From: Candidatus Hermodarchaeota archaeon
GTDB taxonomy: Archaea > Asgardarchaeota > Lokiarchaeia > Sigyniarchaeales > SOKP01
NCBI GenBank assembly: GCA_048885925.1
Contig: JBHLLG010000003.1
Coordinates: 23,727 to 87,726 of the forward strand
Length of the DNA: 64,000 nt
Direction: 5' to 3'
Part shown: piece after piece, positions 5,358-23,129 of the stretch
Layout: the number at the start of each line of letters is the position of its first letter
Numbering within the stretch: the first letter of the stretch is position 1
Notes under the pieces: generated by a model
What the model was told of the DNA's origin: nothing
Seen by the model: only the letters and a program-made list of their open reading frames with translations
The model's database searches: none
Translations under genes and position numbers: made by a program

Positions 5358-5534
5358 TCTTGTCTTTTTTACATTTGTTAAATTTTACTACTAAAATAAG
5401 AGATTTAGTGGTATTTTCTTGACTTTTACTAGTAATAGTTTGAATTAATCTTTAAATATTCTAACAAATTAGTAAATTTACCTCTGATAGATTTATAAAC
5501 TTAAAATTACATTAAACTCACGATCCAATTAATT

Positions 5535-8500
5535 TTGCAATGGGCGATGAAAGCAGATAATAATAATTCGCAAGAAAAAATAAGAAAAGCCACTGAGTTG
5601 CTTCAAAAGTCCTGGTGGTTTTCATGGTTCTTAATAATTGCTCCTTTAACAACAGCGATAGTTGGCTTTTTTATTTTTCGTCTTTTCCGAATAGAGTTTT
5701 ATTTGGCACTTTCTTTCGCTGTTGTTGTTTTTATGTTTGCTTTACTACTTTTTTATAAAGCCTTCGATAAATACAGAAATAATCCATTTTTTCTTGATAA
5801 AACTAACAATCTCAAAGCAAGAATTCATATTATATTTTTAATTTCTACTTTAGCATTTATTGCAACTCCCATTTTTATTCTTATATCGCCAGTAGGATAC
5901 TCATTTATTACACTTCCATTAATCAGTTATGCTCTTCTCTATAATATTGTTTATTATTATTGTTATTTCCAACCATTAGACTTTTATGATTTAAATAAAG
6001 GAGAATTCAAGCATGCTCAGGATTTTAAATTAATATTAAAACAACCATATAATTTCTTACTTTTCCTAAATTATATTATTCATATAATTTTTTTATCCAT
6101 TACTGCTTCCACTAATTTCTCTTGGCTTTATTCTCTTATAACAAACCTATTCATATATTTCATTACTATAACAAGTACTAAGAAACAAATTAATGAAATA
6201 GATGTTCTAATATTAGAAAAGAAATCATTCTTGAAAGAATTAACGTTATATAAATTAAAATTAACGATTTCTTTGATTAACCTCATTTTTATTTTATTAA
6301 TTCAACTACCCTTTATAGTATTAATAACTTCAATTCTTTCAGGTACCCATTATTCAAATATAGAGCTTGTAAATAGCTTTTTTTTATCTCTAATATTTAT
6401 CTTGTTTTATTTTAAATCTAGGTTTTATATTAGTTTTTACTATACTTCCAGGCTTACTGTCTACGAAGAAGCTGAAAAATTAAAAGACGTTCAAGAGAGA
6501 CCACCATTTTTAAGTAATAAGTATCAAAAGTACAATTCTTATTTTTCTGGACTATTAATTCTTTTGATAATGCTTTTCTCATTTCTAATTAATATTCCAG
6601 TATTGATATTATTTATTCTTCCTTTTCTTTATATACTCTTTCATTATGAACAGAAGTCAGATCTTTGTTCTAAAAAATACAACAAATATATTATCCTACT
6701 AAACTCTTTTGTTATTTTAATTTCTATTTGTTTTGGGCTTTTACCACAAATTTCGGAAATATTTTACATAAATATTCAATTTATTTCATTTTTATTTTTG
6801 TCATATTTTGCATTACAATTATTTGCGAAATTTGGGTATTTTAACAAAGATAATATTATTATTTATCAAAATATAATTGGAGTTTCTTGTTTTTCTATAA
6901 TATTATATTCTTTTTTTCCCATTGTTATTTTTGAATATATTTCATTTACATCTGATCCATTTATTATATTCATTTCAAATTTTTTAGTCCATTCAATATT
7001 AATTTTGATAATTTTATTAATTTCTTTTTATGTATTATATATTCGTTTCTTTTATGCCAAACGTCCAAAATTATTTAAAGTCAGCGTAGTTGCTAATATT
7101 TTTGTAATTGAATTAATTCTATTTATTTTAATTAATCTGAGAATATTTTATTTAGTTGAACTTTTTACATTTTTCCAAATTTTAATTTTGTCAACTATTT
7201 TATTTCCTTTAATTTTTATAATCTTTGTATCAATAAACTATTTCATGGGTATCCTCCCCCTAAAAAACTTTCTGCTACTCACATATTATTCTTTTTGGAT
7301 GTTAATTTTAACTGTTTTTCTATCAATCTCTTTAACTTTTTTTAACAATTATATTATAATAACTCTCGATCTTTTATTGTTATCTATTTTACTTCATTAT
7401 AACATAAAATTTGGATTAAATTTGGATAAAATAACCGCTAAAACTTTTAAAAAATTTGTAAAAGTCAATTCCTATTTATTAACTTTTGAGCTTTTCTTTT
7501 TATTTTACAATATTTTTTTCGTAGCTTTTCAGGCGTTATTATTATTTGATAACATAATATATTCAACTTATTTATCCTTAGCGATAATTTGCACTTTAAT
7601 TAATCTATTTTCTAAAAGGGAGATCTTTTCAGAAGCGCTTTATATAAAAATAAACGTCTTTATTTTACTATACAGCTCAATTATAACATTTTATTTTTTT
7701 TTATTGTTAACACTCAATACATTTTATGTCTTAATTATTCCTATTTTAACCTCAAGCATTGTTCTTTACATTCCAATTTTATATTTAAGAAAAAAGAAAT
7801 TATGCTCAAATTTAACTCCCAAATTACTCACATTTAATAGTATTTTATTATCAATAACGTTAGCATTAATTCCCACTATTATAGGCTTAGATTTATTCTA
7901 TTTGGGCATATATTTTGACTTGACTTTTTTAATAATAACAATAATCAATTTTACATTGTATATTCTGTTCTTGATTTTTGCGATAATCAACTATTTATCA
8001 CGTAAAATTAAGATTAGAGAGGAAAGATTAAAATTTTTCTTGAAATTTCAATTGCTTACTGTATTCTGTACAAGTGCTACGACTATATTTTATTATCCCT
8101 ATTTCTTATTAAGCGAGACTTTATATGCAATTGTCTTCCCTTTGATTTTTGTTTGCTGTTTCCTATATTTTCCTCTCTATTACTCTTATAAGAAATCGTT
8201 TTTCAATATAGAGGATGTTAAAAGAATAATAATTCTTAATACAATAATTTTATCTTGTTTATTAACAACAATACCAACTCTAGTTGGCATAAATTTCATT
8301 TATCTTGGAGTTATTTTTGATTTCAATATGTTTTTGTTAAACATATTAAATTTTTCAATCTATATATTCTATTTATTCCTTTTAATCATCAGCAGCTTAT
8401 TAAAAAAATTCAAAATTAAAGAAAATTTCATCTTAATTGTTAATCAAGTACATATTATATTCTTATTTATAATATCTATTACAACAGTTTTCTTTTATCC

Positions 8501-11500
8501 TTTTCTAGTGTTATTAGAATCTTATTATGGCATAATTTTGCCACTAATTGCATTACTTTTTTCATGGTTCTTCCTTTTTTATTATTCTTATAAAAAAGAG
8601 TACTTTAATTTAGAGAGGGTCAAGAAATTGACAATATATAATTTTATTATCTTTTCTTGTTTAATTATTTCTTTACCTACAATTGTAAGTTTGGAATTTA
8701 TTAGAATTGGATTAGAAGTAAATTTAATATTTATATTAACTAGCTCTCTATTCCTACTATTTGTTTTTCTAAAGATTTCTGAGAGTTTAAGTGTAAAAAT
8801 TAAATTAAAAGAGAAATTTATCAAAAATTTTAAGTTATTTGCATTTATTTCTTGGTTTTCGTTTACTTTACTAATATCTTATTATATTGCATCGACATTT
8901 ATAGCTGAAATAGAGTTAACTCCAATAACTTTATTAATATTGAGTTGTAGCTTTTTTACATTTTTTACATTAAGTATTTACAGTTTATTTCTATTTTCTA
9001 GCTATTCAGCGGGATTATCGTATTTAAAATATTTCCAGGATCTTATCATTTATGGGATTATAATTTCAATATCATTTATATTCTTTTTTTTAATACTCTC
9101 AGTAGAGTTTTTCGTATTTCTTTTTATAGGTCCACTGCTATTTAATGTATCAATTTTAATTGGTTCTTTTTTTACAATTTTTCTTTTAATTCTAATAATA
9201 ATTGATAAAATAATAGAAATAAGATTATCTCAATTAAAAATTATAATTGAGCTAATATCATGGCTAATTATAAAGATATTAATATGTTTATCAACCTTTT
9301 CTCTATTTGATTTTTTTACATATCAGTTCTTTGCATATCAGTTCTTTATGATTAATAAGATACTTTTATTTTCACTAATATTTTTGTTTCTTACTCCAAT
9401 AAGTCTGTTTATTTTAAAGAGTTTAAAATATTTAACTACTGAAAATCAATTTTTAATAAAAAAGATCGCTGTTATAATCTTTATCATTTCAATATTAAGT
9501 ATTTATTCTGAAATTTTGTTTAATACTATGAATTTATTACCTATCTTTTATCAGAATTTCCTATTTCATATAACAGTCTTTATGGTAAATTTAATTTTAT
9601 TTGGTTATTATTTTATTTTGATTTTTAATATAACCGTTGAAGAACGTTCTGTTTTAAAATTATTTAGATTTTACATTTTATCATTTATATTATTTATAAG
9701 TCTTCTTTATTTTGGTACAATTTTATCAATTTTTCTTTTATTAATATCCTTTGTTATAATTCTCTCTCAGAGGAGTTCTATTCCAATTTTTCGATTTTTC
9801 TCATATTTCCTACTAAGTTTTTTTACCTTTATTGAAACTATTGTTATTCTAAATACTTATGCTATTATACCCGGATTTGATATACTAATGATGAATATTT
9901 TTATTATTCTTTATCTATTATCCATCAGTGGAGTTTTAGTATTTTCTATTTTATTAAATATAAAAAGAAATAATAATCTGGAGAAAATTTCACTATATTC
10001 TCTCATTTCACTATTATCTTTTGTCTATCTTAATTCATTTACTAAAATATTAATTCTTTACAACATAACAATTTCAGCTTTTATTTTATTGTTATTTATT
10101 GGAATTAACTTGTATCGCCAAAAAGATGAACGATATAAATGGTTTATTAACCCGTGTGTACTTTTATTTATTTTTGATTTTATTAGCTTTTTATCATATT
10201 CATGGTTCTTTAATAATCCAATTTTTAAATTGTATAATCCGATTTTAACTTTTACATTAACTTTAAGTATGACTGGATTTGGATTTATCCTTTTGTATAA
10301 TAAAGCGCCAGCTAGATTTAGGAAGAAGTCTTTTCTTTATGTAATTCTTCCATCAATAGTTTTTTCTTTTCCAACCTTTTTATATTTTCTTATCATCGCT
10401 GCTTTATCTATGCCATTATGGTCTGTAGTCCCTTTTATCGTCGCAATTAATTTTGGAGTTTTTCTTTTTTATTTTTCAATTGGAATTTATCAATGGAGGA
10501 TCTCATGGACAATTTGGAAATCTGGGTGGTATGCTTGGAATATTCTACCTTTTGTTAATTTCTATATAATTTATCAAAATTTTACAGGAATAGATGTATT
10601 AACCAATTCATTACAATTTGGAATGTTTTCCGTTGAAGGATCATTAATTATATCGATAATAATTTGTTCTTTATTTTTTTTACCAGTTGTATACTCTAAA
10701 ATTAAGAAATACTTTTCTCAAATTTTTTTTATTATTTGGGGTGAAAGTCTATTTTTACTCTATTGGATTAGTCAAAATTTGTTTGTTGATGATATATTAC
10801 TGAGAAATTTATCTTTCGTTTTATTCTCTGCGATTTTATTGATGCCTATTTTAGTAGGTTTAAAATTTTGGAAAATTTTGTCAATACTTTGGGTATTTCC
10901 TCTAACATTTATTAACATATGGTTTATATCATCTTATTTGATATCTATAGGAATATCTTTTGAACTTGCATTTTCAATTGATGTTTTGGTTATAGGGTTG
11001 TTATTAATAGTATATTCATTTTTTCCAAATATTAGATCAGTAGTTGTTGTTTTAATAACTGCGTATTTCATAACTTTATTAGGTATTTTCTTAACAATTT
11101 ATTTTGTTCTATATTCTCTAATATTGAACCCATATTTTGCTATAAATATGAGTTTTATTACGGTTGGTTTTAGTCTTTTTTCCTCAAAATATGTAAAGTT
11201 ATCCAAAAGAATTATTGATATATGTCTTTCTTGGATTCTAATAATAAATTTTGCATGGTTAACTTTTAATACATTAAGTTTAATTCCAGGCTTAATAATG
11301 GTTGCTTTTTCATTAGCATTAACTGTTTTAGGTTTTTCCTTCTTCATATTTAATCGTTATAAAATGAAAATTCCTATCAATAAAGCGATTCCATATTTAA
11401 TTTTGACAATTGGAGCGTCATTATCAGCCTCATCTTTAATTTCTATTATCTTTAAAGCATCTCCAGGTATTCTGATTTCTGTCTCTTTTTCAGTATTCAT

Positions 11501-14500
11501 TCTATTTTTATATTTTTTAATTACGGAATATAGGTTCATTATTTGGCTTCTTATTCCAATTCCTATAACTTCACCAATACTTGAGCAAATAATGAGAATA
11601 AATTTTATTAAACCATTTTGGCTTTTAACGTGGTCGATGTTATATCTTATATCTTTTCAGGTATTGATAAATTTATTTAAAAATTTGGTAACGGAAGAAA
11701 AACCGGAAATAAAAAATAGTATTTTAAAAATTTTCACGGATAAAAATCAAGTGAAACAGCTTAACTTTACCTGTTTTCTATTAAACTCAATAAGTATATC
11801 TCTATTTATCGCAATTTTTTTACCAAATTTATTGAAACAAATCATATTTACTGAATTACTATTAATTTACCAGATTTGCGATTTTCTAATAATTTGGTCG
11901 TTCTCATTTTTAATTTGTATGAAATATGTTGAAAAATCAGAATTGAATATAAGAATAAAAAATCTAATGCATTATTTCGCAAAAATTAGTTTCATTTTAT
12001 ATCTTTTAATACCCTTTGCACTAGGAATTAATCTTTATTTATATCTGGTATTTATGAAAGCAGAATTTTTGATATCTCTTTATCTAGTTTTATTATTATT
12101 CAGTGCAGTAATGTTTATAGAAAATTTCTTCTTAGATAAAAATTATTTTTATCTTCTTTTCAATTCAACAAGAAATCAATTTACTTTAGGTTCATGGCTA
12201 ATTTTTAGTAATATTTTGGCTCTATTCTTATATTTATTTCATTTAAACGTTTTTCTTTTAATTTTAACTATTTCACTATTGAATATCGTATCTATTTACT
12301 TTTTATCTCATTTAGATATTTCAAAAACCAAAATTTCTACTTCTTATTTAATTCTTATTTATAATTCATTTATTTGGAGTTCTTTTTATATTGCATCGTT
12401 AATTTCTGATGGGTTGGTTTTTATATTTGAAGAATTAAGGGGTTTTACTTATTACTCATTATTATTTCAAAATGCATTTTTACTATTATTCGTTTTTAGT
12501 TATTTTTTCATTAAATTTGAAAAGAATTTAAAAAATTGGATTGAATTCATTTTTTTCATCATATTTCAAGGATTATTAGTAGTAAATTTGATTTTAATAC
12601 TTGTGATTTATAATTATTTAAATGTACTTACAATTAACATAATTATTTTGATTGAGACTTGTTTGTCATTTAAACCAATTAATAGTGTTAATATTATATT
12701 ACCTGAACAAAAATATCCAAACTTCTTAACAAAAATCTCTTCAATTTTAGTATTGTTATTATATATTGAAGTAAGTATGACGATTTATGGATTATTAATT
12801 GGATTCATAGGAATGCTTGAGAGTATTCTAATTTCTCTATCATTATTATTCTTCCTAACTTTTGCAGATATTTATTCTATCAAAAAAGTAAGAAAAAGTT
12901 ATGCTTCACTTGTTCATAGTGTTAGTTTCTTTACGATTTCATTTATGTTGTTTTTAATTATAAATCGGTTGGTATCTCAATATCCACTCTTACTTAGTGT
13001 AGAAATTTTTATCTTTTTAATAATGCAATTTTACACTAATTATTCTTTATTTGCCTCTTTAAAGAATTTTAGTCCAAATAAAAAAGAGGATCTTAAAAAA
13101 GTTCAATTATATATTCAACATCTTCTAGGTATAGGTTTCTATCTCACTCTATGTAGTTTTATATTACAGTCTTTAATCTTACAAAGGTTTGAATTGCAAT
13201 TAATTCTTTTAATCCTAAGCGTTGTAGTCCATGCTTTAATGATTATAGACAATTTTCTTTTGAAATTTATAGGCAAAACGTCTAATTACATTAAAGTCAT
13301 TTCCTGGATATTTATTATGACGTTTACGGCTACATACTTAATCTGGCTTTATAGTACTTATTTTATTACCTCCTTTTTTACTGTTATACCAATTATTATA
13401 ATTATTCTTATCCTCGAAGTAGCTTATCTCTTCAGATTATTGATTTTTTGGCCAATAATTATTTCGAAAAAAGAAAAAATTCGTTTTTTTCTAATTAATT
13501 TAACCTATCTTAATTTTATTACATGGCCTTTGTATTTTGCGAGATTAAATGCTTTTCTTATGCTAAATTTAATACTATTTTCCTTTCTAATTACTGTTAT
13601 AATTACTTATATTGATGAAACTATAGGAGTTTTAAGAGAAAAAACAAGAAAATCCTTGAAGTCTTATTCATTCTTGATTTTTGGTAGCTTATTAACTATT
13701 GACGTTTTCATTCTCTTAGGATTTATTCCCCATTTCGATATTCTATTAAATGTTAGTATTTCTTCTTTATTATTTATTACATTTATTGTAATCAAAGTGA
13801 AGCCATTTAAAGAACATTCATTTATAGCTTTCGGTTTTTGGATGGCCATTTTTTTATTATTAAGCTTATTTATATATCGGATTTCATTATCTTGGATTTT
13901 TGGAGTAGTAGTTTTGGGTTTAACTATTTTAATTTATCCATTCGTATTCCTTTTAGAAGAATTAAGAGAATTATTTAACAGATTTATTGATAATTTAATA
14001 AATTTATTTAGAATGATAAAAACTATTGTTAGGAATTTAGTTATTAATATCGTCAATTTCATAAAGCTATATTTCAAATCAATTTTGATTATTGTTAATA
14101 TGTTTCTTTCAATATTTCTTGGTATTCTTCTATCACCCGCAATATTGAATATATTAAATTGGATTCATTCAATACTCCTAATATTTCCATTTTTTGGATT
14201 ACTCTATTCATTCATCCCCACTAAAAAATCAAAAGATGTGGATATAACTTTTAAACGTCATATGTATCGTCTAATTATCAGTTGGGGTAGTATTATTGTG
14301 GTTTTGTTTGCGTTTATAACACCTATTTGGTATATATTCACTATTTGGATATCAATTTGGATTGTTGGAGCAATTTTATTACCTTATATAAGTTTTAAAG
14401 AAAAAAGTGAGAATATATCAATTAAGTGGAGATTTTATACACTAATACTTTTAATAATTTTGCTTATTTTATTTGGAATATTATTTGGTACTCAGATTTA

Positions 14501-14522
14501 TATGAATTTTTTTCTAAATTAA
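5535..14522 (+). CDS. giant polytopic integral membrane protein (2,995 aa); no recognisable soluble or catalytic domain
   Basis: 8,988-nt uninterrupted ORF in ~20% GC DNA. The tracked start is TTG 5535, with an alternative ATG at 5547. The ORF track lists only four antisense ORFs (60-82 aa) inside it. The translation is F/I/L/Y/S/N-rich hydrophobic stretches separated by short K/R/E/N loops. Confidence 0.8.
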   Translation: MQWAMKADNNNSQEKIRKATELLQKSWWFSWFLIIAPLTTAIVGFFIFRLFRIEFYLALSFAVVVFMFALLLFYKAFDKYRNNPFFLDKTNNLKARIHIIFLISTLAFIATPIFILISPVGYSFITLPLISYALLYNIVYYYCYFQPLDFYDLNKGEFKHAQDFKLILKQPYNFLLFLNYIIHIIFLSITASTNFSWLYSLITNLFIYFITITSTKKQINEIDVLILEKKSFLKELTLYKLKLTISLINLIFILLIQLPFIVLITSILSGTHYSNIELVNSFFLSLIFILFYFKSRFYISFYYTSRLTVYEEAEKLKDVQERPPFLSNKYQKYNSYFSGLLILLIMLFSFLINIPVLILFILPFLYILFHYEQKSDLCSKKYNKYIILLNSFVILISICFGLLPQISEIFYINIQFISFLFLSYFALQLFAKFGYFNKDNIIIYQNIIGVSCFSIILYSFFPIVIFEYISFTSDPFIIFISNFLVHSILILIILLISFYVLYIRFFYAKRPKLFKVSVVANIFVIELILFILINLRIFYLVELFTFFQILILSTILFPLIFIIFVSINYFMGILPLKNFLLLTYYSFWMLILTVFLSISLTFFNNYIIITLDLLLLSILLHYNIKFGLNLDKITAKTFKKFVKVNSYLLTFELFFLFYNIFFVAFQALLLFDNIIYSTYLSLAIICTLINLFSKREIFSEALYIKINVFILLYSSIITFYFFLLLTLNTFYVLIIPILTSSIVLYIPILYLRKKKLCSNLTPKLLTFNSILLSITLALIPTIIGLDLFYLGIYFDLTFLIITIINFTLYILFLIFAIINYLSRKIKIREERLKFFLKFQLLTVFCTSATTIFYYPYFLLSETLYAIVFPLIFVCCFLYFPLYYSYKKSFFNIEDVKRIIILNTIILSCLLTTIPTLVGINFIYLGVIFDFNMFLLNILNFSIYIFYLFLLIISSLLKKFKIKENFILIVNQVHIIFLFIISITTVFFYPFLVLLESYYGIILPLIALLFSWFFLFYYSYKKEYFNLERVKKLTIYNFIIFSCLIISLPTIVSLEFIRIGLEVNLIFILTSSLFLLFVFLKISESLSVKIKLKEKFIKNFKLFAFISWFSFTLLISYYIASTFIAEIELTPITLLILSCSFFTFFTLSIYSLFLFSSYSAGLSYLKYFQDLIIYGIIISISFIFFFLILSVEFFVFLFIGPLLFNVSILIGSFFTIFLLILIIIDKIIEIRLSQLKIIIELISWLIIKILICLSTFSLFDFFTYQFFAYQFFMINKILLFSLIFLFLTPISLFILKSLKYLTTENQFLIKKIAVIIFIISILSIYSEILFNTMNLLPIFYQNFLFHITVFMVNLILFGYYFILIFNITVEERSVLKLFRFYILSFILFISLLYFGTILSIFLLLISFVIILSQRSSIPIFRFFSYFLLSFFTFIETIVILNTYAIIPGFDILMMNIFIILYLLSISGVLVFSILLNIKRNNNLEKISLYSLISLLSFVYLNSFTKILILYNITISAFILLLFIGINLYRQKDERYKWFINPCVLLFIFDFISFLSYSWFFNNPIFKLYNPILTFTLTLSMTGFGFILLYNKAPARFRKKSFLYVILPSIVFSFPTFLYFLIIAALSMPLWSVVPFIVAINFGVFLFYFSIGIYQWRISWTIWKSGWYAWNILPFVNFYIIYQNFTGIDVLTNSLQFGMFSVEGSLIISIIICSLFFLPVVYSKIKKYFSQIFFIIWGESLFLLYWISQNLFVDDILLRNLSFVLFSAILLMPILVGLKFWKILSILWVFPLTFINIWFISSYLISIGISFELAFSIDVLVIGLLLIVYSFFPNIRSVVVVLITAYFITLLGIFLTIYFVLYSLILNPYFAINMSFITVGFSLFSSKYVKLSKRIIDICLSWILIINFAWLTFNTLSLIPGLIMVAFSLALTVLGFSFFIFNRYKMKIPINKAIPYLILTIGASLSASSLISIIFKASPGILISVSFSVFILFLYFLITEYRFIIWLLIPIPITSPILEQIMRINFIKPFWLLTWSMLYLISFQVLINLFKNLVTEEKPEIKNSILKIFTDKNQVKQLNFTCFLLNSISISLFIAIFLPNLLKQIIFTELLLIYQICDFLIIWSFSFLICMKYVEKSELNIRIKNLMHYFAKISFILYLLIPFALGINLYLYLVFMKAEFLISLYLVLLLFSAVMFIENFFLDKNYFYLLFNSTRNQFTLGSWLIFSNILALFLYLFHLNVFLLILTISLLNIVSIYFLSHLDISKTKISTSYLILIYNSFIWSSFYIASLISDGLVFIFEELRGFTYYSLLFQNAFLLLFVFSYFFIKFEKNLKNWIEFIFFIIFQGLLVVNLILILVIYNYLNVLTINIIILIETCLSFKPINSVNIILPEQKYPNFLTKISSILVLLLYIEVSMTIYGLLIGFIGMLESILISLSLLFFLTFADIYSIKKVRKSYASLVHSVSFFTISFMLFLIINRLVSQYPLLLSVEIFIFLIMQFYTNYSLFASLKNFSPNKKEDLKKVQLYIQHLLGIGFYLTLCSFILQSLILQRFELQLILLILSVVVHALMIIDNFLLKFIGKTSNYIKVISWIFIMTFTATYLIWLYSTYFITSFFTVIPIIIIILILEVAYLFRLLIFWPIIISKKEKIRFFLINLTYLNFITWPLYFARLNAFLMLNLILFSFLITVIITYIDETIGVLREKTRKSLKSYSFLIFGSLLTIDVFILLGFIPHFDILLNVSISSLLFITFIVIKVKPFKEHSFIAFGFWMAIFLLLSLFIYRISLSWIFGVVVLGLTILIYPFVFLLEELRELFNRFIDNLINLFRMIKTIVRNLVINIVNFIKLYFKSILIIVNMFLSIFLGILLSPAILNILNWIHSILLIFPFFGLLYSFIPTKKSKDVDITFKRHMYRLIISWGSIIVVLFAFITPIWYIFTIWISIWIVGAILLPYISFKEKSENISIKWRFYTLILLIILLILFGILFGTQIYMNFFLN
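7821..9035 (+). repeat. three tandem ~135-aa (about 405-nt) four-helix modules inside the giant membrane gene
   Basis: Copies start at aa 763, 898 and 1032. They share the skeleton '..LS..L..IPT..G...YLG..FD....NF..YI..L' followed by 'TT.FYYP..LL.E..Y.I..PLI' and then 'YYSYKK..FN.E.VK+'. Copies 1 and 2 align clearly. Copy 3 is decayed. Confidence 0.7.
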
Positions 14523-14720: not shown

Positions 14721-16211
14721 GTGATCAAAAATATGGAAGCACTAACTAAAAGAATTATAGCTATTGTCCTTATTGTTGCCATTGGAGCAGGTGTTGGCGT
14801 GACCGCATGGATTTTTCTTGCGGCACCAGGCGCTGGTGAATATTCTTGGGGTGCAAAAGATTGTCCAGGCTTACCTGAAGGAGCTACTGTTACTTCAGAG
14901 AATATAATCAAGTTCGGAGTGGCCGGTGATGTTGGTGAAATAACAGGTGATGGCGCTTGGGAAGGTACAAGGTTCGCGGCAAAAGAAATAAATGCAGCAG
15001 GTGGTATTGTAATTAACGGTACTACATATTATATTGGGGTCACAAAAGAAGATACAGATGAGGCAAATCCTAATTTAGTAACATCAAGAGGTGTTAATGC
15101 CGCAGAAAGGTTGGTGTATAATAAAAAGGTTCATTTTGGAATTGGTGGATTCAGATCAGAGGCATTGTTAGCATACCGAGAAGTATTTATGGAAAACGAG
15201 ATTATATTTATTGATACTGGAGCCGCTACAGATGTATTTTGTGCATCAGTCGGATCATGGTATACTAGATATAAATATTTCTGGAGATCCATGCCAATAA
15301 ACTCATCTTCATTAGGCGCTCAAATCTTTGGCTATCTCTTCTATATGGTAGGTTTGTTAAATTACACCTATCATCCTGCTACAAGTCCAATTGGAGGAAC
15401 TGAACCAATTGATAAAATTGGAATAATTTATGAAGATTTAACTTGGACAAAGGATTTAGTAAATGGCGTGAAGACATATTTCGGAACTCCAGGAATCCCT
15501 GTTCCTCCCTATAATAAATACGCAGGAATGCTTGTAGAAGATATCCCATATGATGTTACCTTAACCTCGGCAGATATGCTCACTCATGTAAATGCATTAA
15601 TAGCTGCTGGATGTGATATTGTTATCCCTGTAATATCTGCTCAAGGTGGAGTATTCTTAACACAACATTATGCTGATCTTACGCCAAATTTCATTTTAAT
15701 AGGAATAGATGTTCAATCACAGTTGGACACATATTGGACTCAAACTGGCGGAGATTGTGTGTACGAGACTATAATGCAAAGTATACATTATACCAATAAA
15801 ACTGCAACCACAAAATCATTTTGGACAGATTTTCGCACAGAATATGGTCATGATCCACTTTATACTGCATCGGGTAGCTACGATGCTGTAAACTTCCTTG
15901 TGTGGGCAATCGAAGAGACTCAATCATTAGATCCAGATGTTATAACAGTTCAAATGGAGACAGCTACAAAATCCAATGTAATAAATAATCCTGGGGATTT
16001 CCCTTCTAGTGTTGGTGGACTTGGAGCCTACAATAGTAATCACGATCTGATTGCAGGTTATCCATTTGGATATACTTTGTGGTGCCAGTGGCAAGCTAAC
16101 GCAACGAAAATAATTTGTCCAACCGGAGGTTATGTATACCCTGACACCGCTCTTGAGAATATTGGAACGTATCAAGTGTCACCTTGGGTTCATACAGCAT
16201 GGACAACTTAA
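14721..16211 (+). CDS. ABC transporter substrate-binding protein, Leu/Ile/Val-binding-protein (type I PBP) family
   Basis: N-terminal hydrophobic anchor (IIAIVLIVAIGAGVGVTAWIFLAA). Then 'KFGVAGDVGEITGDGAWEGTRFAAKEINAAGGI' and 'VHFGIGGFRSEA', typical of LivK-like binding proteins. First gene ahead of livHMGF. Tracked start GTG 14721, alternative ATG 14733. Confidence 0.75.
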   Translation: MIKNMEALTKRIIAIVLIVAIGAGVGVTAWIFLAAPGAGEYSWGAKDCPGLPEGATVTSENIIKFGVAGDVGEITGDGAWEGTRFAAKEINAAGGIVINGTTYYIGVTKEDTDEANPNLVTSRGVNAAERLVYNKKVHFGIGGFRSEALLAYREVFMENEIIFIDTGAATDVFCASVGSWYTRYKYFWRSMPINSSSLGAQIFGYLFYMVGLLNYTYHPATSPIGGTEPIDKIGIIYEDLTWTKDLVNGVKTYFGTPGIPVPPYNKYAGMLVEDIPYDVTLTSADMLTHVNALIAAGCDIVIPVISAQGGVFLTQHYADLTPNFILIGIDVQSQLDTYWTQTGGDCVYETIMQSIHYTNKTATTKSFWTDFRTEYGHDPLYTASGSYDAVNFLVWAIEETQSLDPDVITVQMETATKSNVINNPGDFPSSVGGLGAYNSNHDLIAGYPFGYTLWCQWQANATKIICPTGGYVYPDTALENIGTYQVSPWVHTAWTT

Positions 16212-16272
16212 AACAACTAAGAAGATTGACTAGAAAATTAAATTGAATTAACTATTTAATAAATACAAATAA

Positions 16273-16288
16273 TTTTTTTTTTTTTTTT
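16273..16288 (+). terminator. oligo-T tract (16 consecutive T) between the binding-protein gene and the permease genes
   Basis: The T16 run is seen directly, 62 nt after the stop at 16211. Archaeal RNA polymerase terminates or pauses at oligo-T tracts. The position would give excess binding-protein transcript relative to the permeases. Confidence 0.45.
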
Positions 16289-16445
16289 AAGAAATATAAC
16301 GTAGTAGAGAATAGATTTATAATTTTATAAAGTAGGTTGTTATTGTATTATTTTGTCAAAAAATAATTGAAAGATTAGCTTTATAAAAGATGGGATAAAA
16401 GTATAATATAAGTATTTTAATAAAAACACCTAGGAACAATTAAAA

Positions 16446-17336
16446 ATGATTGAAGATATAATAAATTTCATATTCAATGGTACTTTAAATGGTGCTGTAT
16501 ATGCTCTAGTTGCTATGGGATACTCCTTAACTTATGGAGTAGGAGGAATTATGAATCTATCTCATGGAGCATATTTTATGTTAACAGGTTATTTAATGTT
16601 ATGGTTGGTTGGATCTCCTTTTTTTGAAGGGCTCGAGTGGTTAACTGTAGTCCTTGCATTGCTTATTATAACGATAATAGGAGGACTTACGTATATCTTA
16701 CTTATTAATCCTTTACAAGAGTCTCATGTTGCCGTTGTCCTAATAACCTTCGGATTAGCGTTCTTTTTAGAACAAGTAGTATTAATATCTCCTTCTGGTA
16801 CTGAATCCTGGTCTATTAGTAATTTGAGATTAGTTCAGGGTGCTACACAATTTCTAGGATATAGTATTATTAATCAATTTTTAGCACTCATAATTATATC
16901 TTTGATAATTGTTTCTTTATTCGCACTTTTTATCAGCAAATCCAAGCTTGGAAAATCTATTCGAGCAGTCTCCCAAGACAGAGAAGCAGCTATGTTAATG
17001 GGGATAAATGCTGATAAAATTCTCCTATACACTGTCATGATTTCAGCATTTTTAGCAGCCGTGGCAGCATTTCTATATCTGCCGGGAGCTGCCTTAAGTG
17101 GTCCCTCTATGGGATGGGAATTTTTAACGAATTCATTTGCTATCGTAATTCTTGGAGGGATGGGAAGTCTTGTAGGAAGTGTAGTTGGGGCTTACATTGT
17201 GGGATATACTATCCAATTTACAAATATTTTTATTCCTAATGGTCCATCTTGGGCGCATTTAGTTCCTATAATAGTTATTGTTATAATGCTCTTAATTAGA
17301 CCTCAGGGATTGTTTGGAAAAAAAGAACTAAAATAA
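16446..17336 (+). CDS. livH: branched-chain-amino-acid-type ABC transporter permease (LivH family)
   Basis: 296 aa, polytopic. N-terminal 'NGAVYALVAMGYSLTYGVGGIMNLSHGA' and C-terminal 'ILGGMGSLVGSVVGA' are typical LivH signatures. Confidence 0.85.
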   Translation: MIEDIINFIFNGTLNGAVYALVAMGYSLTYGVGGIMNLSHGAYFMLTGYLMLWLVGSPFFEGLEWLTVVLALLIITIIGGLTYILLINPLQESHVAVVLITFGLAFFLEQVVLISPSGTESWSISNLRLVQGATQFLGYSIINQFLALIIISLIIVSLFALFISKSKLGKSIRAVSQDREAAMLMGINADKILLYTVMISAFLAAVAAFLYLPGAALSGPSMGWEFLTNSFAIVILGGMGSLVGSVVGAYIVGYTIQFTNIFIPNGPSWAHLVPIIVIVIMLLIRPQGLFGKKELK

Positions 17337-17356
17337 TAAATTGAGGAATTTAAAAT

Positions 17357-18391
17357 ATGTTTACAAAAAGAGTTCAGGAAAAAGTATCCGATTTTCCAAG
17401 TTATTTTAAGACATGGGCTAAAACATTTAGTGGAGGCTTAACCCTTTTTTGCGTACTTAGTCTTGCATTGCTTCCTTTTCTTTCACAAAATGTGAATTTT
17501 ACATATTTATTCTTACGCCAATTCACACTTGCTATGATTTTTTCAATCTTTGCTGCAAGTTGGGATCTTTTAACTGGAATTGCCGGACAAATTAGTTTTG
17601 GGCACGCTATTTTTTTTGGAATATCAAGTTATGTTTGTGCTTACCTTATTAAATACCAAAGCTTCAATGTTTTCTTAGCAATGTTATGTGGCGCAATTGC
17701 AGCAGTTTTATTTGGCTTAACCATTGGAATACCATGCTTAAGACTGAGAGGCCCGTATTTAGCATTAGGAACTCTTGCATTAAGCTTAATTTTATTAAAA
17801 TTATTTTTAATGGGTTCACTTGCTGATATATTCTTTGGTTCAGAAGGAATATTCGGTCTTAAAGGATTGTATCCTGCACTTTCTAGAAACCCTGTTTTAG
17901 AATATTTTATAATATTCATTTCAATGGTAATAGTATTTATAATTATAATTCAAATTACTAAATCTAGATTTGGAACTATTTTGAAATCAATTCGTGATGA
18001 CGAGTTGGGAGCAGATGCTTCAGGAATTAATACAACAAGATATAAAATTTATGCATTTATGTTAAGTGCTCTATTTGCTGGAATTGCTGGTTCCTTTTAT
18101 ACCATGTATATCGGAGCTGTAAACCCTACTGGGAACTTTGGTACGGTTATTTCATTTTTTGCTATTCTCATGGCCTCTTTAGGGGGAATTGCCACAATTT
18201 CAGGATCAGCATTAGGAGCTTTTTTCTTCATTTTTCTTGAATATGCTCTTATACAAGCAGGGGTTGAAATTTACGTTCATTTGATTTTTGCCATTACGTT
18301 AATTATCGTTGTTCGATTTGCAGAACACGGTATTTTAAGACCTTTAGTTGAGCGTTTAAAAGATTTATGGGATGTTTTATTAGGAAGATAA
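17357..18391 (+). CDS. livM: branched-chain-amino-acid-type ABC transporter permease (LivM family)
   Basis: 'GQISFGHAIFFGISSY', 'LRLRGPYLALGTLAL' and 'IRDDELGADASGIN' are LivM-like. A GAGG Shine-Dalgarno-like motif lies ~9 nt upstream. Confidence 0.85.
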   Translation: MFTKRVQEKVSDFPSYFKTWAKTFSGGLTLFCVLSLALLPFLSQNVNFTYLFLRQFTLAMIFSIFAASWDLLTGIAGQISFGHAIFFGISSYVCAYLIKYQSFNVFLAMLCGAIAAVLFGLTIGIPCLRLRGPYLALGTLALSLILLKLFLMGSLADIFFGSEGIFGLKGLYPALSRNPVLEYFIIFISMVIVFIIIIQITKSRFGTILKSIRDDELGADASGINTTRYKIYAFMLSALFAGIAGSFYTMYIGAVNPTGNFGTVISFFAILMASLGGIATISGSALGAFFFIFLEYALIQAGVEIYVHLIFAITLIIVVRFAEHGILRPLVERLKDLWDVLLGR

Positions 18392-18432
18392 AAATTAATA
18401 TTTTAATGAATTAAATTAAGGTGAATTAAATA

Positions 18433-19173
18433 ATGGGAGTTCTTTTAGAAGTTAAAAATTTAACAAAAAAGTTTGGTGGATTAACAGCAGTTAATGATTT
18501 TAGTTTTGAAATCATGCAAGGAGAATTTGTTGGTTTAATTGGACCAAATGGCGCAGGTAAAACTACTGTGTTTAATCTAATATCTGGGTTTGAAAAACCT
18601 ACATCAGGAAAAATTCGGTTTGATGGAATTGATATTATTGGAATGCGACCATATAAAATTGTAAATTTAGGACTTGCGAGAACCTTTCAGTTGGTAAGAT
18701 CTTTTAAATTTCTCAGTCTTCTTGATAATGTGACTGTCGCTTGTTTATCGCATAGAGGAAAGCAAGTTTCAAAAGATATAGGCACGGATGAATATGCAAG
18801 TTCAATTCTTGCTGCTGTAGGTCTTGTGGATAAAGCAAGAATACCACCTATTATAGTACCTCATGGTGATTTGAGAAAATTACAAATTGGAAAAGCGATT
18901 GCTACCAATCCAAAATTACTTCTTCTTGATGAACCATTTAGTGGCCTTAGTTTTGAGGAAACAGTAGGTATTATTGATTTAATAAAGAAGTTACATAGCG
19001 ATGGAGTTACTATTTTGATGACGGGTCATGTATTACGTGAACTTATGGCTTTAGTACCAAGAGTAATTGCGATGCATCAAGGTAAATTCATTATGGAGGG
19101 GACTCCTAAAGAAGTTGCGAATAATAAAATTGTGCTTGAAGCATATTTAGGAAGAGGTGAAGGTTATGCTTGA
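18433..19173 (+). CDS. livG: ABC transporter ATP-binding protein (LivG family), atypical signature motif
   Basis: Walker A 'GPNGAGKTT', Q-loop 'RTFQ', Walker B 'LLLLDEP' and an H-loop His. The position of the LSGGQ signature reads 'VPHGDL'. AGGTGA lies upstream of the ATG. Confidence 0.85.
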   Translation: MGVLLEVKNLTKKFGGLTAVNDFSFEIMQGEFVGLIGPNGAGKTTVFNLISGFEKPTSGKIRFDGIDIIGMRPYKIVNLGLARTFQLVRSFKFLSLLDNVTVACLSHRGKQVSKDIGTDEYASSILAAVGLVDKARIPPIIVPHGDLRKLQIGKAIATNPKLLLLDEPFSGLSFEETVGIIDLIKKLHSDGVTILMTGHVLRELMALVPRVIAMHQGKFIMEGTPKEVANNKIVLEAYLGRGEGYA

Positions 19174-19870
19174 AATAAAGAAATTATATCATTATTATGG
19201 GAAAGCAAGAGCTCTTGAAGAAATCAATTTAAAAATTGAAGAGAAAGTTTTAGATGCTGTTATTGGTCCAAATGGAGCGGGAAAATCTACTCTTCTCAGA
19301 GTAATATCTGGTTTAGAAGAACCAGATAGAGGAAAAATTGAATTCTTAGGAGAGAGAATAGATGAGTTAAAAGCTCATAAAATAGCCAAAAAAGGAATTT
19401 CTCATTGTCCAGAACGTCGAAGGTTGTTTCCTGACATGAATGTTGCCGATAATCTCAAAATGGGAGCATTCTTAAATAAAGATAAAGAAAAATACAAAAT
19501 ATTAAGAGATTTTGTTTTTGAAATTTTTCCACGTCTTAAAGAAAGAAGAAAGCAACGGGCAGGGACATTAAGTGGAGGAGAACAACAAATGCTTGCTATT
19601 GCACGTTCTCTTATGGCTAACCCAAAATTGCTTTTATTAGATGAACCATCATTAGGTTTAGCTCCAAAAGTTAAGAAAAAAATTTTTGAAGCAATTGAAA
19701 TGATCAAAAAAGAAGGTACAACTACATTATTAGTTGAACAAGATGCCGCATTAGCTATGGATGTATCTGAATATCTCCATGTTTTAGAGGAAGGAAAAAT
19801 TGAAATGCGTGGTACAAGCGAAGAATTAAAGAGAGAACCTCGAATTAAAAAAATATATTTAGGTATATAG
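19157..19870 (+). CDS. livF: ABC transporter ATP-binding protein (LivF family)
   Basis: Walker A 'GPNGAGKST', canonical signature 'LSGGEQQ' and Walker B 'LLLLDEP'. Overlaps the livG 3' end (tracked GTG 19157, or ATG 19166 inside ATGCTTGA). Confidence 0.85.
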   Translation: MKVMLEIKKLYHYYGKARALEEINLKIEEKVLDAVIGPNGAGKSTLLRVISGLEEPDRGKIEFLGERIDELKAHKIAKKGISHCPERRRLFPDMNVADNLKMGAFLNKDKEKYKILRDFVFEIFPRLKERRKQRAGTLSGGEQQMLAIARSLMANPKLLLLDEPSLGLAPKVKKKIFEAIEMIKKEGTTTLLVEQDAALAMDVSEYLHVLEEGKIEMRGTSEELKREPRIKKIYLGI

Positions 19871-19881
19871 GGTGATTTTGA

Positions 19882-21342
19882 ATGTCAGCTCCTTTAGAAA
19901 TATTATTGAGAGATGCTCGAATTGATCTCGTTTTAGCTCGAATCGAGAAAGATGAATCTATTATAAATGAGATAATAAACCATATAGATAACAATATTAG
20001 ATCGATTAAATTCAATGCGATTCATGTATTAGGAGAATTAGGCCAAAAATCTAAAAACAGTATCTCAAAATTGAGGAAATGTTTAGAAGATGATGATTGG
20101 AGTATTAGACGTGAAGCTGTTAGATCCTTAGGAAAGATTGGAGAAATTGCTAAAGATACAATTCCACAGGTATCGATAATGCTAAAAGATAAAGAAGAAT
20201 CTATTAGAAGTGAAGCAGCAATTTCACTTGGTAAGATTAAGAATCCGACTAATGAAGCAATTTCAAGTTTAATTGAAGTATTAAATGATAATTCTGAAAT
20301 TGTCCGAACTGAAGTTGCTAAAGCTCTCGGTGAAATAGGGGCAGATGCATATGAAGCAATTCCATTTCTTATGAAAAGCCTTAAAGATGTAAGTTGGACT
20401 GTTAGAACTTCCTCAGCTCAATCAATTAGTCAGATTGGGAAAGGATCTACCAAAGCCATACCAAGTTTAATAAAAGCACTTGAAGATAAAGATTGGAGAG
20501 TAAGATTCAGAGTCTCGAATACTTTAGCAGAATTAGGAAAGGAAGTAATTCCAAATCTTGTATCTATATTACACCATAAAGATAAATTTGTAAGAAAGTG
20601 CGTAGTAGATATATTGGGAGAAATGAAACTAACAGATCAAAATATAATGGACAATATCTCAAAACTATTACATGATAAAGCCGAAATCGTTAGAGGGAAA
20701 GCTGCTGATGCTCTTAGGAGTATTGGCAAAGACGCTGTTCCCATTTTAAATAGAGAAATTGAATCAGCATCTTTAAAAATGAAAAAAATCATAATTTCTG
20801 CACTTGGAGGTATTGGTACAGACGCTAAAGAAGCGATTCCAACTCTTATCAGTTTATTAAAAGTGCCTGAACAATTATATATTGAACATATGCTTGGAAT
20901 GGGTTTATGGAAGGTTATTTCTTATAAGTCTAAACATTCAATTTTAACTTTTATAAACGATCCCTTTAGAAGAAATGTATCAGTTAGAGTAGAAGTAGCA
21001 AGAGCATTAGGAAAAATTGGAGTAGATTCAGAAGATGCTATCCGTGCTCTTGAATTTGCTTTGTATGATCCCAGAAGTATTGTACGACGTGAAGCTGCAC
21101 TTTCTTTAGGAAAATTAGGATTATTAGCAAAAAATGCAGTTCCCAGTTTAATTAAAAGTTTACAAGATAAAAATCCAGATGTAAGATGGAGATCATCTGA
21201 AGCATTGGGAGTATTAGGCGTTAATACCGAAGAAGTTATATCAAGTTTGAATGAATTAATCCATGATGAATGTGATTTCGTATGTGAATCTGCTATTAAT
21301 GCATTAGATGCATTAACCGAAGAAGAACAAAAATATTATTAG
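19882..21342 (+). CDS. HEAT-repeat protein (PBS-lyase/HEAT-like repeats, about 13 copies)
   Basis: Repeated ~31-aa units ending in '..VR..A..ALG.IG', for example DWSIRREAVRSLGKIG, SEIVRTEVAKALGEIG and NPDVRWRSSEALGVLG. Starts 11 nt after livF with GGGTGAT upstream. Confidence 0.8.
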   Translation: MSAPLEILLRDARIDLVLARIEKDESIINEIINHIDNNIRSIKFNAIHVLGELGQKSKNSISKLRKCLEDDDWSIRREAVRSLGKIGEIAKDTIPQVSIMLKDKEESIRSEAAISLGKIKNPTNEAISSLIEVLNDNSEIVRTEVAKALGEIGADAYEAIPFLMKSLKDVSWTVRTSSAQSISQIGKGSTKAIPSLIKALEDKDWRVRFRVSNTLAELGKEVIPNLVSILHHKDKFVRKCVVDILGEMKLTDQNIMDNISKLLHDKAEIVRGKAADALRSIGKDAVPILNREIESASLKMKKIIISALGGIGTDAKEAIPTLISLLKVPEQLYIEHMLGMGLWKVISYKSKHSILTFINDPFRRNVSVRVEVARALGKIGVDSEDAIRALEFALYDPRSIVRREAALSLGKLGLLAKNAVPSLIKSLQDKNPDVRWRSSEALGVLGVNTEEVISSLNELIHDECDFVCESAINALDALTEEEQKYY

Positions 21343-21431
21343 AGATCCATATTTTTCTTAATAATGATCTATATTTTTCTTAATAATAATTATTATAAAA
21401 GGAAGTATTTTAAAAAGGAGGAAGTTAAAAA

Positions 21432-23129
21432 TTGAGTGATAATCCGTATGCAGCAAAACCATGGTTACAACATTATGATGATGGTGTTGCAGCCGAAGTA
21501 AATATCCCTGAAATGAATATTTCAGAGTTTCTTGACAATTCAACTAAGGAATTTGGGAGTAGAACTGCTATTTGGTTCCTAAAAAACAAAATATCGTATA
21601 AAAAGTTCAAGGATGTAGCTGATAGGCTTGCTACTGCTCTTGTTGATTTAGGTGTGAAAAAAGGTGATGTCGTGGCAATCATGTTGCCAAATATGCCTCA
21701 ATTTATGTTTAGTTTTTATGGTATCTTGAAGGCAGGGGGCATTGTAACCGCAAATAGTATACTCCACACAGAACATGAGCTAGCTTATCAATTAAATGAC
21801 TCTGGTGCAGAAATAATAATTGCATGGGACAATCAGTTAGAAAAAATTATGAATATTAAGGATAGAACACGTCTTAGACACATAATTATTACTAATGTAT
21901 TTGATTATGCTCCGATGGCTGATCAATTAAGGGTAAGAGAACCTCCAGAAATAGCGGGAACGATTCAATTTCTAAATTTAATTAATAAAACAAAACCTAA
22001 TCCTCCTAAATTTGAGACTAACGCAAAAGAGGATGTAGCAGTCCTACAATATACAGGAGGAACAACAGGTTTACCTAAAGGAGCAATGCTGACTCATTAT
22101 GGTTTAGTTGCCAATTGTGTTCAGATGCATGAATGGACAAAATCCTTAGTACAGAGAGGGAAACAGACTGCGCTTACAACATTACCTTTATTTCATATCT
22201 ACGGAATGCAAGTGTGTATGAATAGTTTCATATATAGTGGAACAACTATCGCTCTACATCCTGATCCTCGAGATCAAAAAGGTTTATTTGAGGTGATTAA
22301 AGCAACTCATCCTGCAATGTTTCCTGGTGTACCAACGATGTACATGCGCCTATTAGAGCGTGATGATCTCGAAGATTATGCTAAAGATCTCAGGTCAATC
22401 AAGGTTTGTAATAGTGGTGCTGCTCCAATGCCACCTGAAGTTCTAAAAGAATTTGAGGAAAGAACGGGGGCTGTAATAATCGAAGGATATGGAATGACAG
22501 AATGTGGACCCGCAACTCATGTTAATCCATTAAACGGAACAAGAAAAATTGGTTCTGTAGGATTGGCAATATCAAGTACTGAATTTAAAATCGTTGATAT
22601 TGAAGATTATACTAAAATTGTTCCCCAAGGTGAAGCAGGAGAAATAATGGTTAAAGGGCCTCAAGTTATGAGAGGATATTGGAATAAACCAGAAGAAACA
22701 GCAAATCAATTGAAAGGCGATTGGTTATTAACTGGAGATATTGGAAGAATGGATGAAGATGGGTATTTATATATAGTCGATAGGAAAAAAGATATGATAA
22801 ATATCAGCGGGTTTAAAGTGTACCCAAGAGAAGTTGAAGATGTATTATTTGAACATGAGGCTATTGAAAATGCATCAATAATAGGAGTGCCTGATCCTAA
22901 TGTTCCTGGTAATGAATATGTTAAAGCATTCATAGTACTAAAAGATGGATATAGAGAAACTGAGGAAATTAAAGCAGACATTAAAGAGTTCTTAAGGAAA
23001 AATGTTGCTCCTTATAAAGTTCCAAAAGAAATGGAGTTCAGAAAGGAATTGCCTGAAACTTTTGTCGGAAAAGTGCTCCGTAAAGATCTAAAGGAAATAG
23101 AAGCCAAAAGACGCGGAGAAGAAGTATAG
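21432..23129 (+). CDS. AMP-forming acyl-CoA synthetase / fatty-acid-CoA ligase (ANL superfamily)
   Basis: AMP-binding motif 'LQYTGGTTGLPKGAMLTH', plus 'GYGMTE', 'TGDIGRMDEDGYLYIVDRKKD' and the C-terminal 'GKVLRKDL'. TTG start preceded by AGGAGG. Confidence 0.85.
   Translation: MSDNPYAAKPWLQHYDDGVAAEVNIPEMNISEFLDNSTKEFGSRTAIWFLKNKISYKKFKDVADRLATALVDLGVKKGDVVAIMLPNMPQFMFSFYGILKAGGIVTANSILHTEHELAYQLNDSGAEIIIAWDNQLEKIMNIKDRTRLRHIIITNVFDYAPMADQLRVREPPEIAGTIQFLNLINKTKPNPPKFETNAKEDVAVLQYTGGTTGLPKGAMLTHYGLVANCVQMHEWTKSLVQRGKQTALTTLPLFHIYGMQVCMNSFIYSGTTIALHPDPRDQKGLFEVIKATHPAMFPGVPTMYMRLLERDDLEDYAKDLRSIKVCNSGAAPMPPEVLKEFEERTGAVIIEGYGMTECGPATHVNPLNGTRKIGSVGLAISSTEFKIVDIEDYTKIVPQGEAGEIMVKGPQVMRGYWNKPEETANQLKGDWLLTGDIGRMDEDGYLYIVDRKKDMINISGFKVYPREVEDVLFEHEAIENASIIGVPDPNVPGNEYVKAFIVLKDGYRETEEIKADIKEFLRKNVAPYKVPKEMEFRKELPETFVGKVLRKDLKEIEAKRRGEEV

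Follow-up and report, generated by a model that had tools for sequence, protein, structure and literature searches.

We analysed a stretch of 64,000 nucleotides (nt) from Candidatus Hermodarchaeota archaeon (assembly GCA_048885925.1, contig JBHLLG010000003.1, positions 23,727 to 87,726 of the forward strand; hereafter the window), which carries a gene of about 9 kb for a giant, almost purely hydrophobic membrane protein. A single open reading frame (ORF) occupies 5535-14522 (+), with an in-frame stop upstream at 5502. The first ATG in frame lies at 5547 and matches the conserved M1 of the homologues (M1 in at least 90% of a 46-sequence alignment). Because the homologues begin at the methionine encoded at this position, the giant gene almost certainly runs from ATG 5547 to a TAA stop at 14520-14522 (+) and codes for 2,991 amino acids (aa). 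The initial annotation of this DNA had described the ORF correctly but had placed the start at 5535, giving 2,995 aa. The gene is separated by an intergenic gap of 190 nt from a gene for a glycoside hydrolase of family GH4, and a candidate archaeal TATA box, TTTATAAA (5492-5499, +), was predicted from the sequence about 48 nt before the ATG.

The gene has a GC content of 22.8%, against 29% in the window, and a T content of 46%. With its own base composition a stop is expected with a probability of 0.074 per codon, or once per 13.5 codons, and the probability of 2,991 codons without a stop was estimated on this basis at about 1e-100. The remaining five frames contain 149-433 stops each, and their longest open run is 99 codons; the four antisense ORFs mentioned in the initial annotation are chance openings. 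When the gene was compared with that of the closest species (locus L011, 84% amino acid identity), the nonsynonymous and synonymous substitution rates were dN = 0.080 and dS = 0.401, a ratio of about 0.2. This result showed that the giant gene is under purifying selection.

Homologues were collected in several ways. Among 5.8 billion proteins, a word-indexed search identified 88 homologues (E ~0, 27-68% identity), none of them with a Pfam domain. The full-length ones are about 2,400-3,750 aa long, while a few entries are partial; all are named 'hypothetical' or 'membrane protein of unknown function' and originate from metagenome-assembled genomes (MAGs) of Lokiarchaeia/Promethearchaeota. A scan of one genome per GTDB species, in which the conserved C-terminal motif served as the search pattern, recovered 60 loci, and every locus that covers the giant gene completely has one intact ORF of 2,540-3,335 codons. 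In total, about 100 full-length members of 2,408-4,356 aa were found. The initial annotation had named stops or frameshifts at orthologous loci as a sign of a decaying or misassembled gene, but the orthologues carry intact ORFs at complete loci and evolve at the dN/dS of about 0.2 given above. The sole split locus was L017 (CP070831.1, the 'chromosome' of MAG bin108), where only aa 1687-2987 are present and adjoin a run of 200 N; it was rejected as a pseudogene, since the interruption is an assembly gap inside a 9-kb gene.

To define the borders of the family, aa 741-1940 were compared exhaustively by phmmer with 1.84 billion representative proteins. All 57 matches at E <= 1e-3 were family members or contig-truncated fragments, the most divergent being from Ca. 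Sigynarchaeum, and no relatives outside the family were found among these representatives. Short matches of 89-245 aa were considered as stand-alone proteins with four transmembrane (TM) helices, but have the appearance of fragments left by truncation or frameshift. As no free-standing 4-TM relatives were present in this set, the proposal that small 4-TM units serving as subunits elsewhere have here been strung together in one chain finds no support. With a family profile, a colinear, more distant branch (3,144-4,356 aa) was reached, which is equally hydrophobic (crude TM count 81-109) and matches the family hidden Markov model (HMM) first with its N-terminus, then with the core and last with the C-terminus. 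When the profile was extended by this branch, only two extra proteins were added, and one homologue was returned from each of two closed genomes (Promethearchaeum syntrophicum MK-D1, CP042905.2; Ca. Lokiarchaeum ossiferum, CP163304.1). These searches suggest a closed, single-copy family that does not extend beyond Lokiarchaeia, taken broadly.

The homologues of the two cultured strains, DSAG12_00898 of MK-D1 (3,940 aa, about 950 aa longer in type) and WKT22_03128 of L. ossiferum (3,144 aa), are both annotated 'hypothetical protein'. They belong to the same superfamily as the window protein (profile E 1e-64 to 1e-69), with colinear HMM matches and an all-TM build (crude count 81-103 TM), but are only 20-21% identical to it overall and have different chromosomal neighbours. 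Both share with it W1657, W1664, P1668, N1671, P1713, W1731, P1767, W1782, F1793, D2568 and R2962, which are invariant superfamily-wide. The window protein itself shows full-length colinear homology in the N-terminal module, core and C-terminal motif, and carries every invariant core residue plus D2568 and R2962. The full-text literature searched by topic, locus tag and TM number does not describe the family. DSAG12_00898 is listed with 152 reads per kilobase per million (RPKM) and its neighbours with 203-317 (Imachi et al. 2020, Supplementary Table 3, PMC7015854). The homologue of MK-D1 is therefore a transcribed gene.

A few loci carry the labels Thor-, Hod-, Hermod-, Odinarchaeota or 'Nanopelagicaceae', yet have the same gene order as the window, with flanking genes that for the most part show 50-85% identity to their window counterparts; we read these labels as loose naming or mis-binning. 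One contig (L034, DATKTW010000160.1), deposited as 'Candidatus Nanopelagicaceae bacterium', has the giant gene together with the Lokiarchaeial synteny of the region of PolB, the family-B DNA polymerase, and is probably mis-binned.

The window protein consists of 17.7% L, 16.9% I, 13.2% F, 8.6% S and 5.8% Y, and its grand average of hydropathy is +1.17. Gly and Ala together make up 4.7% and aromatic residues 20.4%, compared with 14.7-18.3% and 12-16% in transporters encoded in the same window. The number of TM helices was estimated by three crude, independent approaches. A greedy 19-residue Kyte-Doolittle scan found 83 segments at a threshold of 1.6, 73 at 1.8 and 60 at 2.0. Family-averaged hydropathy gave 79 segments, and a reading of the loop table suggested about 12 weaker ones hidden in long 'loops'. 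AlphaFold2 models, built from alignments guided by the homologues P0001 and P0007, covered aa 741-1940 (predicted local distance difference test, pLDDT, 72.9) and aa 1941-2991 (pLDDT 77.5), with a predicted template modelling score (pTM) of 0.44-0.47. Both models are entirely helical and contain 62 TM helices by a strict and about 70 by an inclusive count (median length 26 residues), to which the N-terminal 740 aa contribute about 20 more. Our best estimate from these crude predictors and medium-confidence models is that the chain spans the membrane about 80-90 times.

Along the entire chain, K/R-rich loops (3-8 K/R in 13-45 aa) alternate with loops of 1-20 aa that are essentially free of K/R. 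This alternation follows the positive-inside rule, by which the N-terminus is cytoplasmic and next to nothing is exposed outside; it is the strongest evidence for a true membrane topology. Practically all of the protein mass lies within the bilayer, with outside loops of 1-20 aa and cytoplasmic loops of 13-45 aa. The earlier by-eye estimate of 80-100 TM segments was thus right in scale, and the protein is far from having only a few TM helices, the outcome that would have spoken against it. The lack of an ectodomain was also seen correctly. All windows with a mean hydropathy below zero fall within stretches of about 50 aa at most.

These data allowed us to judge whether the ORF could be non-functional, the product of chance, misassembly, or decaying or low-complexity DNA, as its T-rich, very low-GC sequence, its skewed protein composition and its lack of annotation might suggest. 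A stop-free run with a probability of about 1e-100 and a dN/dS of about 0.2 are incompatible with this explanation, as are the intact homologues in 60 species-level genomes, including the two closed genomes of cultured strains. Particular residues are kept even at 18-25% identity, the whole chain obeys the positive-inside rule, and transcription is documented for the MK-D1 homologue. We exclude a non-functional ORF, any probability left to it being vanishingly small. We concluded that the ORF, as the initial annotation had claimed, is a genuine gene: a real, conserved, single-copy gene for a giant integral membrane protein.

The protein is built of four parts: a separable N-terminal module, a variable array of 4-TM units, an invariant central core, and a C-terminal third with another duplicated unit and, near its end, a conserved cytoplasmic motif. 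The N-terminal module (aa 1 to about 330, about 8 TM; 5547-6536, +) is encoded by a separate, coupled gene in one subclade. In seven loci (L035, L036, L046, L047, L048, L053 and L056), an ORF of 314-351 codons overlaps an ORF for 2,540-2,725 aa. The junction lies near locus position ~10,900 (~9,620 in L053), and GGAGG stands just before the downstream start in several of them. From the sequence, the split is best described as a translationally coupled gene fission within a cytoplasmic loop. A sub-threshold zinc-ribbon insert was seen in the N-terminal cytoplasmic loop of one homologue (P0083, aa 167-190), and proteins with faint zinc-ribbon matches adjoin the giant gene in two unrelated loci (L067, 13562-15100; L068, 4814-5374). 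These occurrences may be coincidental.

The array comprises three tandem modules of about 134 aa with four TM helices each (aa 701-1132; 7647-8942, +), recognised by fragment BLAST, HMM and hhalign. The modules are mutually 28-44% identical (E down to 1e-29 in fragment BLAST; hhalign probability 95-99.8%), each closes with a basic cytoplasmic loop of the form 'SYKK..F.....K', and degenerate copies lie on both sides of the array. A module HMM counted three copies in the window protein and 3-5 across homologues, so that part of the length variation of the family is due to module copy number; this first HMM was swollen to about 310 positions by the copy-number differences and served for copy counts only. 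Whole-protein self-BLAST gave the trivial self match alone, and fragment BLAST and hhalign were needed to detect the repeats. A window-by-window hhalign comparison (666 pairs) also revealed a cryptic repeat in the C-terminal third, in which aa 2121-2290 (11907-12416, +) match aa 2371-2544 (12657-13178, +) with a probability of 96-97% and E ~1e-9 to 1e-10. Only 17/666 pairs reached a probability of at least 80%, which indicates that hydrophobic composition alone does not make such matches; the rest of the chain showed no detectable repetition in this comparison. The tandem modules of about 135 aa noticed in the initial annotation are real but limited to aa ~701-1132, and its extrapolation of the modules to the whole protein finds no support in the sequence.

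Column conservation in the close family is fairly even (0.4-0.55) and peaks at aa ~1490-1960 (10014-11426, +), where the mean rises to 0.6-0.66. Within this peak lies a signature at aa 1645-1830 (10479-11036, +) that is kept in the homologues of MK-D1, L. ossiferum and Sigynarchaeum. It includes Y1648, W1657, G1660, W1664, P1668, N1671, G1681, D1683, G1698, S1699, P1713, W1731, W1740, N1744, P1767, K1773, W1775, W1782, N1790, F1793, G1817 and P1827; many more near-invariant positions fall in the same interval. The core combines an interfacial segment rich in Trp with the longest of the conserved outside loops free of K/R (aa ~1678-1697, G1681-x-D1683 ... G1698-S1699), and it is the least confident part of the AlphaFold2 models (pLDDT 43-60).

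In the C-terminal third, the invariant D2568 (codon 13248-13250, +) belongs to the motif HxLMIxDxxxLKFLGK and sits where a TM helix ends on the cytoplasmic side. The longest cytoplasmic element (aa 2802-2846; 13950-14084, +) is a K/R-rich amphipathic helix with the conserved motif LEEL.ELF; it has 8 K/R in 45 aa, is modelled by AlphaFold2 as a helix of 36 aa, and has a hydropathy under the TM threshold. Before the last TM helix stands the C-terminal motif G2941 ... KEK.E.ISIKWRFYT (14367-14441, +), which contains E2952 and the invariant R2962. The conserved charged residues that were mapped sit in or at the edge of cytoplasmic loops. Acidic residues inside helices of this third (E2370, E2408, E2425, E2624 and D2719) are conserved in the close family; the mid-membrane E2370, E2408 and E2624 are absent from the positions kept in the distant MK-D1 / L. 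ossiferum branch.

We compared the protein with known families and folds. Pfam gave no family at E <= 10, although the library includes the DUF2339 and Piezo models, and three homologues had no DUF2339 match either. NCBIfam gave no match, and sequence and profile searches of PDB chains gave nothing except one chance match to a G-protein-coupled receptor at E = 0.07; the assignment to an unknown family by the initial annotation was confirmed by these searches. DUF2339 proteins (PF10101) resemble the window protein in being long, repetitive and almost purely hydrophobic, but they are bacterial and far shorter. The two AlphaFold2 models were compared with the PDB by Foldseek, for which the best 50 of 95 and the best 50 of 191 matches were listed. 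Nothing was found at E <= 0.001 (best E = 0.12 and 0.04). Almost all matches listed were soluble HEAT/TPR solenoids or designed helical toroids with template modelling scores (TM-scores) of 0.06-0.16; no transporter, channel or enzyme fold was among them, none was significant, and the sole membrane protein listed was complex I subunit M (E = 3.1). Soluble alpha-solenoids (SKI3, CTR9, CRM1 and designed alpha/alpha toroids) are thus the only, very weak neighbours among the matches listed. Their likeness is consistent with a serial up-down packing of helical hairpins, but they are soluble and not homologous, and with E >= 0.04, TM-scores of 0.16 or less and root-mean-square deviations of 18-50 Å the matches are not meaningful.

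In the window and about 38 relatives, the gene order is MFS (major facilitator superfamily) transporter, aminotransferase, GH4, giant gene, Liv-type ATP-binding cassette (ABC) transporter (five genes), HEAT-repeat protein and acyl-CoA-synthetase-like protein. The downstream block (14721-23129, +), which codes for the binding protein, two permeases and two ATPases of the ABC transporter, the HEAT-repeat protein and the AMP-binding acyl-CoA-synthetase-like protein, is syntenic in about 35-40 related genomes. In a more divergent clade the upstream pair is kept while the downstream genes differ and include PolB, and in MK-D1, L. ossiferum, the Sigynarchaeum-like and other branches the neighbours are unrelated. 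Since the synteny is lost in other branches, the context reflects vertical chromosomal conservation and not an operon, and we rejected the MFS-aminotransferase-GH4 / Liv-ABC-HEAT-synthetase neighbourhood as a functional clue.

Directly upstream of the giant gene, on the same strand, MK-D1 and two close relatives carry a Band_7/SPFH (flotillin) gene (L061, 8496-9731; L064, 3511-4734; L065, 3479-4702). The MK-D1 gene is annotated as flotillin K07192 (Imachi 2020 Table S3, PMC7015854). As the three genomes are syntenic overall, this adjacency counts as a single observation.

Farther downstream, the window contains a TrmB regulator (23534-24538, -), a GH20 hexosaminidase-like gene (25577-28165, +) and a family-B DNA polymerase (28881-31289, -); the region is ordinary chromosome, not a mobile element. 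An ORF for 1,783 aa at 41362-46713 (+) lies in a stretch with a very strong purine skew (GC skew 0.34-0.36, AT skew 0.35-0.36). Its sole match was a sub-threshold MIT domain, and it may code for a large coiled-coil or ESCRT-associated protein.

As to function, we tentatively favour a membrane-embedded structural or organising platform over a solute transporter or an enzyme. The membrane scaffold put forward in the initial annotation is likewise conceivable. Very tight hairpin loops imply sequential packing, and consecutive helices joined by such hairpins could line up one after another as an extended array. By our estimate, a patch of about 90 helices would take up some 100 nm2 of membrane; by displacing lipid, it could stiffen or order the bilayer. 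The basic cytoplasmic loops, as the sole exposed surface, could touch lipid head groups or cytoplasmic partners, and self-association or a specific interaction could take place at the conserved core. Several observations led us to prefer this reading. There is no intramembrane charge network conserved across the superfamily; soluble and nucleotide-binding domains are absent, as is a conserved partner; the tolerance of 3-5 module copies and of gene fission fits a scaffold better than an active site; the composition is bulky, rich in aromatic residues and poor in Gly and Ala relative to the transporters of the same window; the Foldseek matches listed include no transporter, channel or enzyme fold; and the flotillin gene is found directly upstream in MK-D1-like genomes.

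Other observations weigh against a platform. At a pTM of 0.44-0.47, helix packing and overall shape are unreliably predicted, and the extended array is deduced from loop lengths and from very weak Foldseek matches (E >= 0.04, TM-score <= 0.16). The invariant core, with its Asn, Asp, Pro and Trp residues and its outside loop, looks like a functional site of a specific kind and could serve as a pore, in binding or in catalysis. The depletion of Gly and Ala is partly an effect of the AT-rich genome, their content being 17% in Sigynarchaeum. The flotillin adjacency is limited to one close clade with general synteny and is missing in L. ossiferum, in the other branches examined and in the window. 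A platform role is a conclusion of low confidence.

The closest analogy among large membrane proteins is with Piezo1/Piezo2, which have 38 TM per protomer, arranged in nine 4-TM repeats plus a pore module. The window protein could likewise be a mechanosensor or channel, in which the core oligomerises as a pore or gate and the TM arrays act as blades that sense or impose curvature or tension in a wall-less, protrusion-forming Lokiarchaeial cell. Both chains are very large (2,500-3,000 aa) and mostly embedded in the membrane, with tandem 4-TM units, basic cytoplasmic linkers in the window protein as the counterpart of those in Piezo, and one small, strongly conserved module beside long, poorly conserved helical arrays. 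The core is also the part modelled least confidently as a monomer, as expected if partners are needed. Cultured Lokiarchaeia are known to form protrusions, and their lack of a rigid S-layer has been discussed (PMC11284389). The archaeal protein has more than twice the TM helices of Piezo, its conserved module is central rather than C-terminal, and with outside loops of about 20 aa at most it has no cap-like extracellular domain. No similarity to Piezo was detected with the Pfam Piezo models or in the PDB chain searches, and no Piezo chain was among the Foldseek matches listed, none of which reached E <= 0.001, the models having a pTM of only 0.44-0.47. Conserved pore-lining charged residues were not identified. 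We consider a Piezo-like function rather unlikely, though it is the chief rival of the platform reading.

A transporter or translocator, such as a lipid scramblase or flippase, a translocase of polyprenyl-linked glycans, or a chain of ion-translocating units like the antiporter-like subunits of Mrp/complex I, seems less probable still. The close-family acidic residues inside helices of the C-terminal third and the superfamily-wide invariance of D2568 would suit it, as would the conserved Asn, Ser and Pro in TM helices, which are typical for transport sites. However, D2568 lies at the cytoplasmic end of its helix, and the mid-membrane Glu are missing from the set of positions that the MK-D1 / L. 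ossiferum branch retains, for which reason ion translocation through them was rejected. No transporter family, including Proton_antipo_M, was matched in Pfam or NCBIfam, and complex I subunit M appeared in Foldseek only at E = 3.1. Transporters of the same genome contain far more Gly and Ala, and no ATPase or operon partner is conserved across clades. An enzyme with its active site in the core, for instance a polymerase, ligase or glycosyltransferase for polymers that are lipid-linked or at the surface, with the remainder as anchor or processivity platform, could draw on the invariant Asn/Asp/Gly-Ser pattern of the core and on D1683, a conserved Asp outside, in its K/R-free loop. The clade-conserved upstream neighbours, GH4 and aminotransferase, are sugar- or amino-related enzymes. 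Yet this synteny is chromosomal and lost in other branches of the family, and searches of Pfam, NCBIfam, PDB and Foldseek found no similarity to glycosyltransferases of the GT-C type, to O-antigen ligases/polymerases or to any other enzyme family. Outside loops of 20 aa or less are too short for an extracytoplasmic active-site domain, and the need for about 75 further helices would go unexplained; an enzymatic role is, in our view, very improbable.

With no detectable relative in sequence or fold, the protein points to a new membrane-protein architecture, and to our knowledge no comparable protein, a single chain of about 90 TM helices that lacks both an ectodomain and a known fold, has been characterised. 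If the TM count holds, it is by far the most TM-rich conserved and transcribed single polypeptide that we know of, with more than twice the 38 TM of Piezo. Going beyond the structural platform favoured above, we can speculate, with considerable doubt, that it is a 'transmembrane solenoid' of one chain with about 90 helices, that it defines the lineage, and that it self-associates via its core and shapes, stiffens or senses the curvature of the wall-less membrane of Lokiarchaeia, for example at protrusions. If true, this would be a class of membrane protein architecture without a solved counterpart.

The finding raises the question of how a 90-helix chain is inserted and folded by the archaeal Sec/YidC machinery, and what the role of a protein that is essentially all bilayer would be. 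As the family is present in both cultured Asgard strains and appears confined to Lokiarchaeia, it offers a tractable, lineage-specific membrane component in archaea that serve as models of eukaryogenesis and whose membrane remodelling and protrusions are intensely studied. Because P. syntrophicum MK-D1 and L. ossiferum both have a homologue, the role of the protein can be tested directly.

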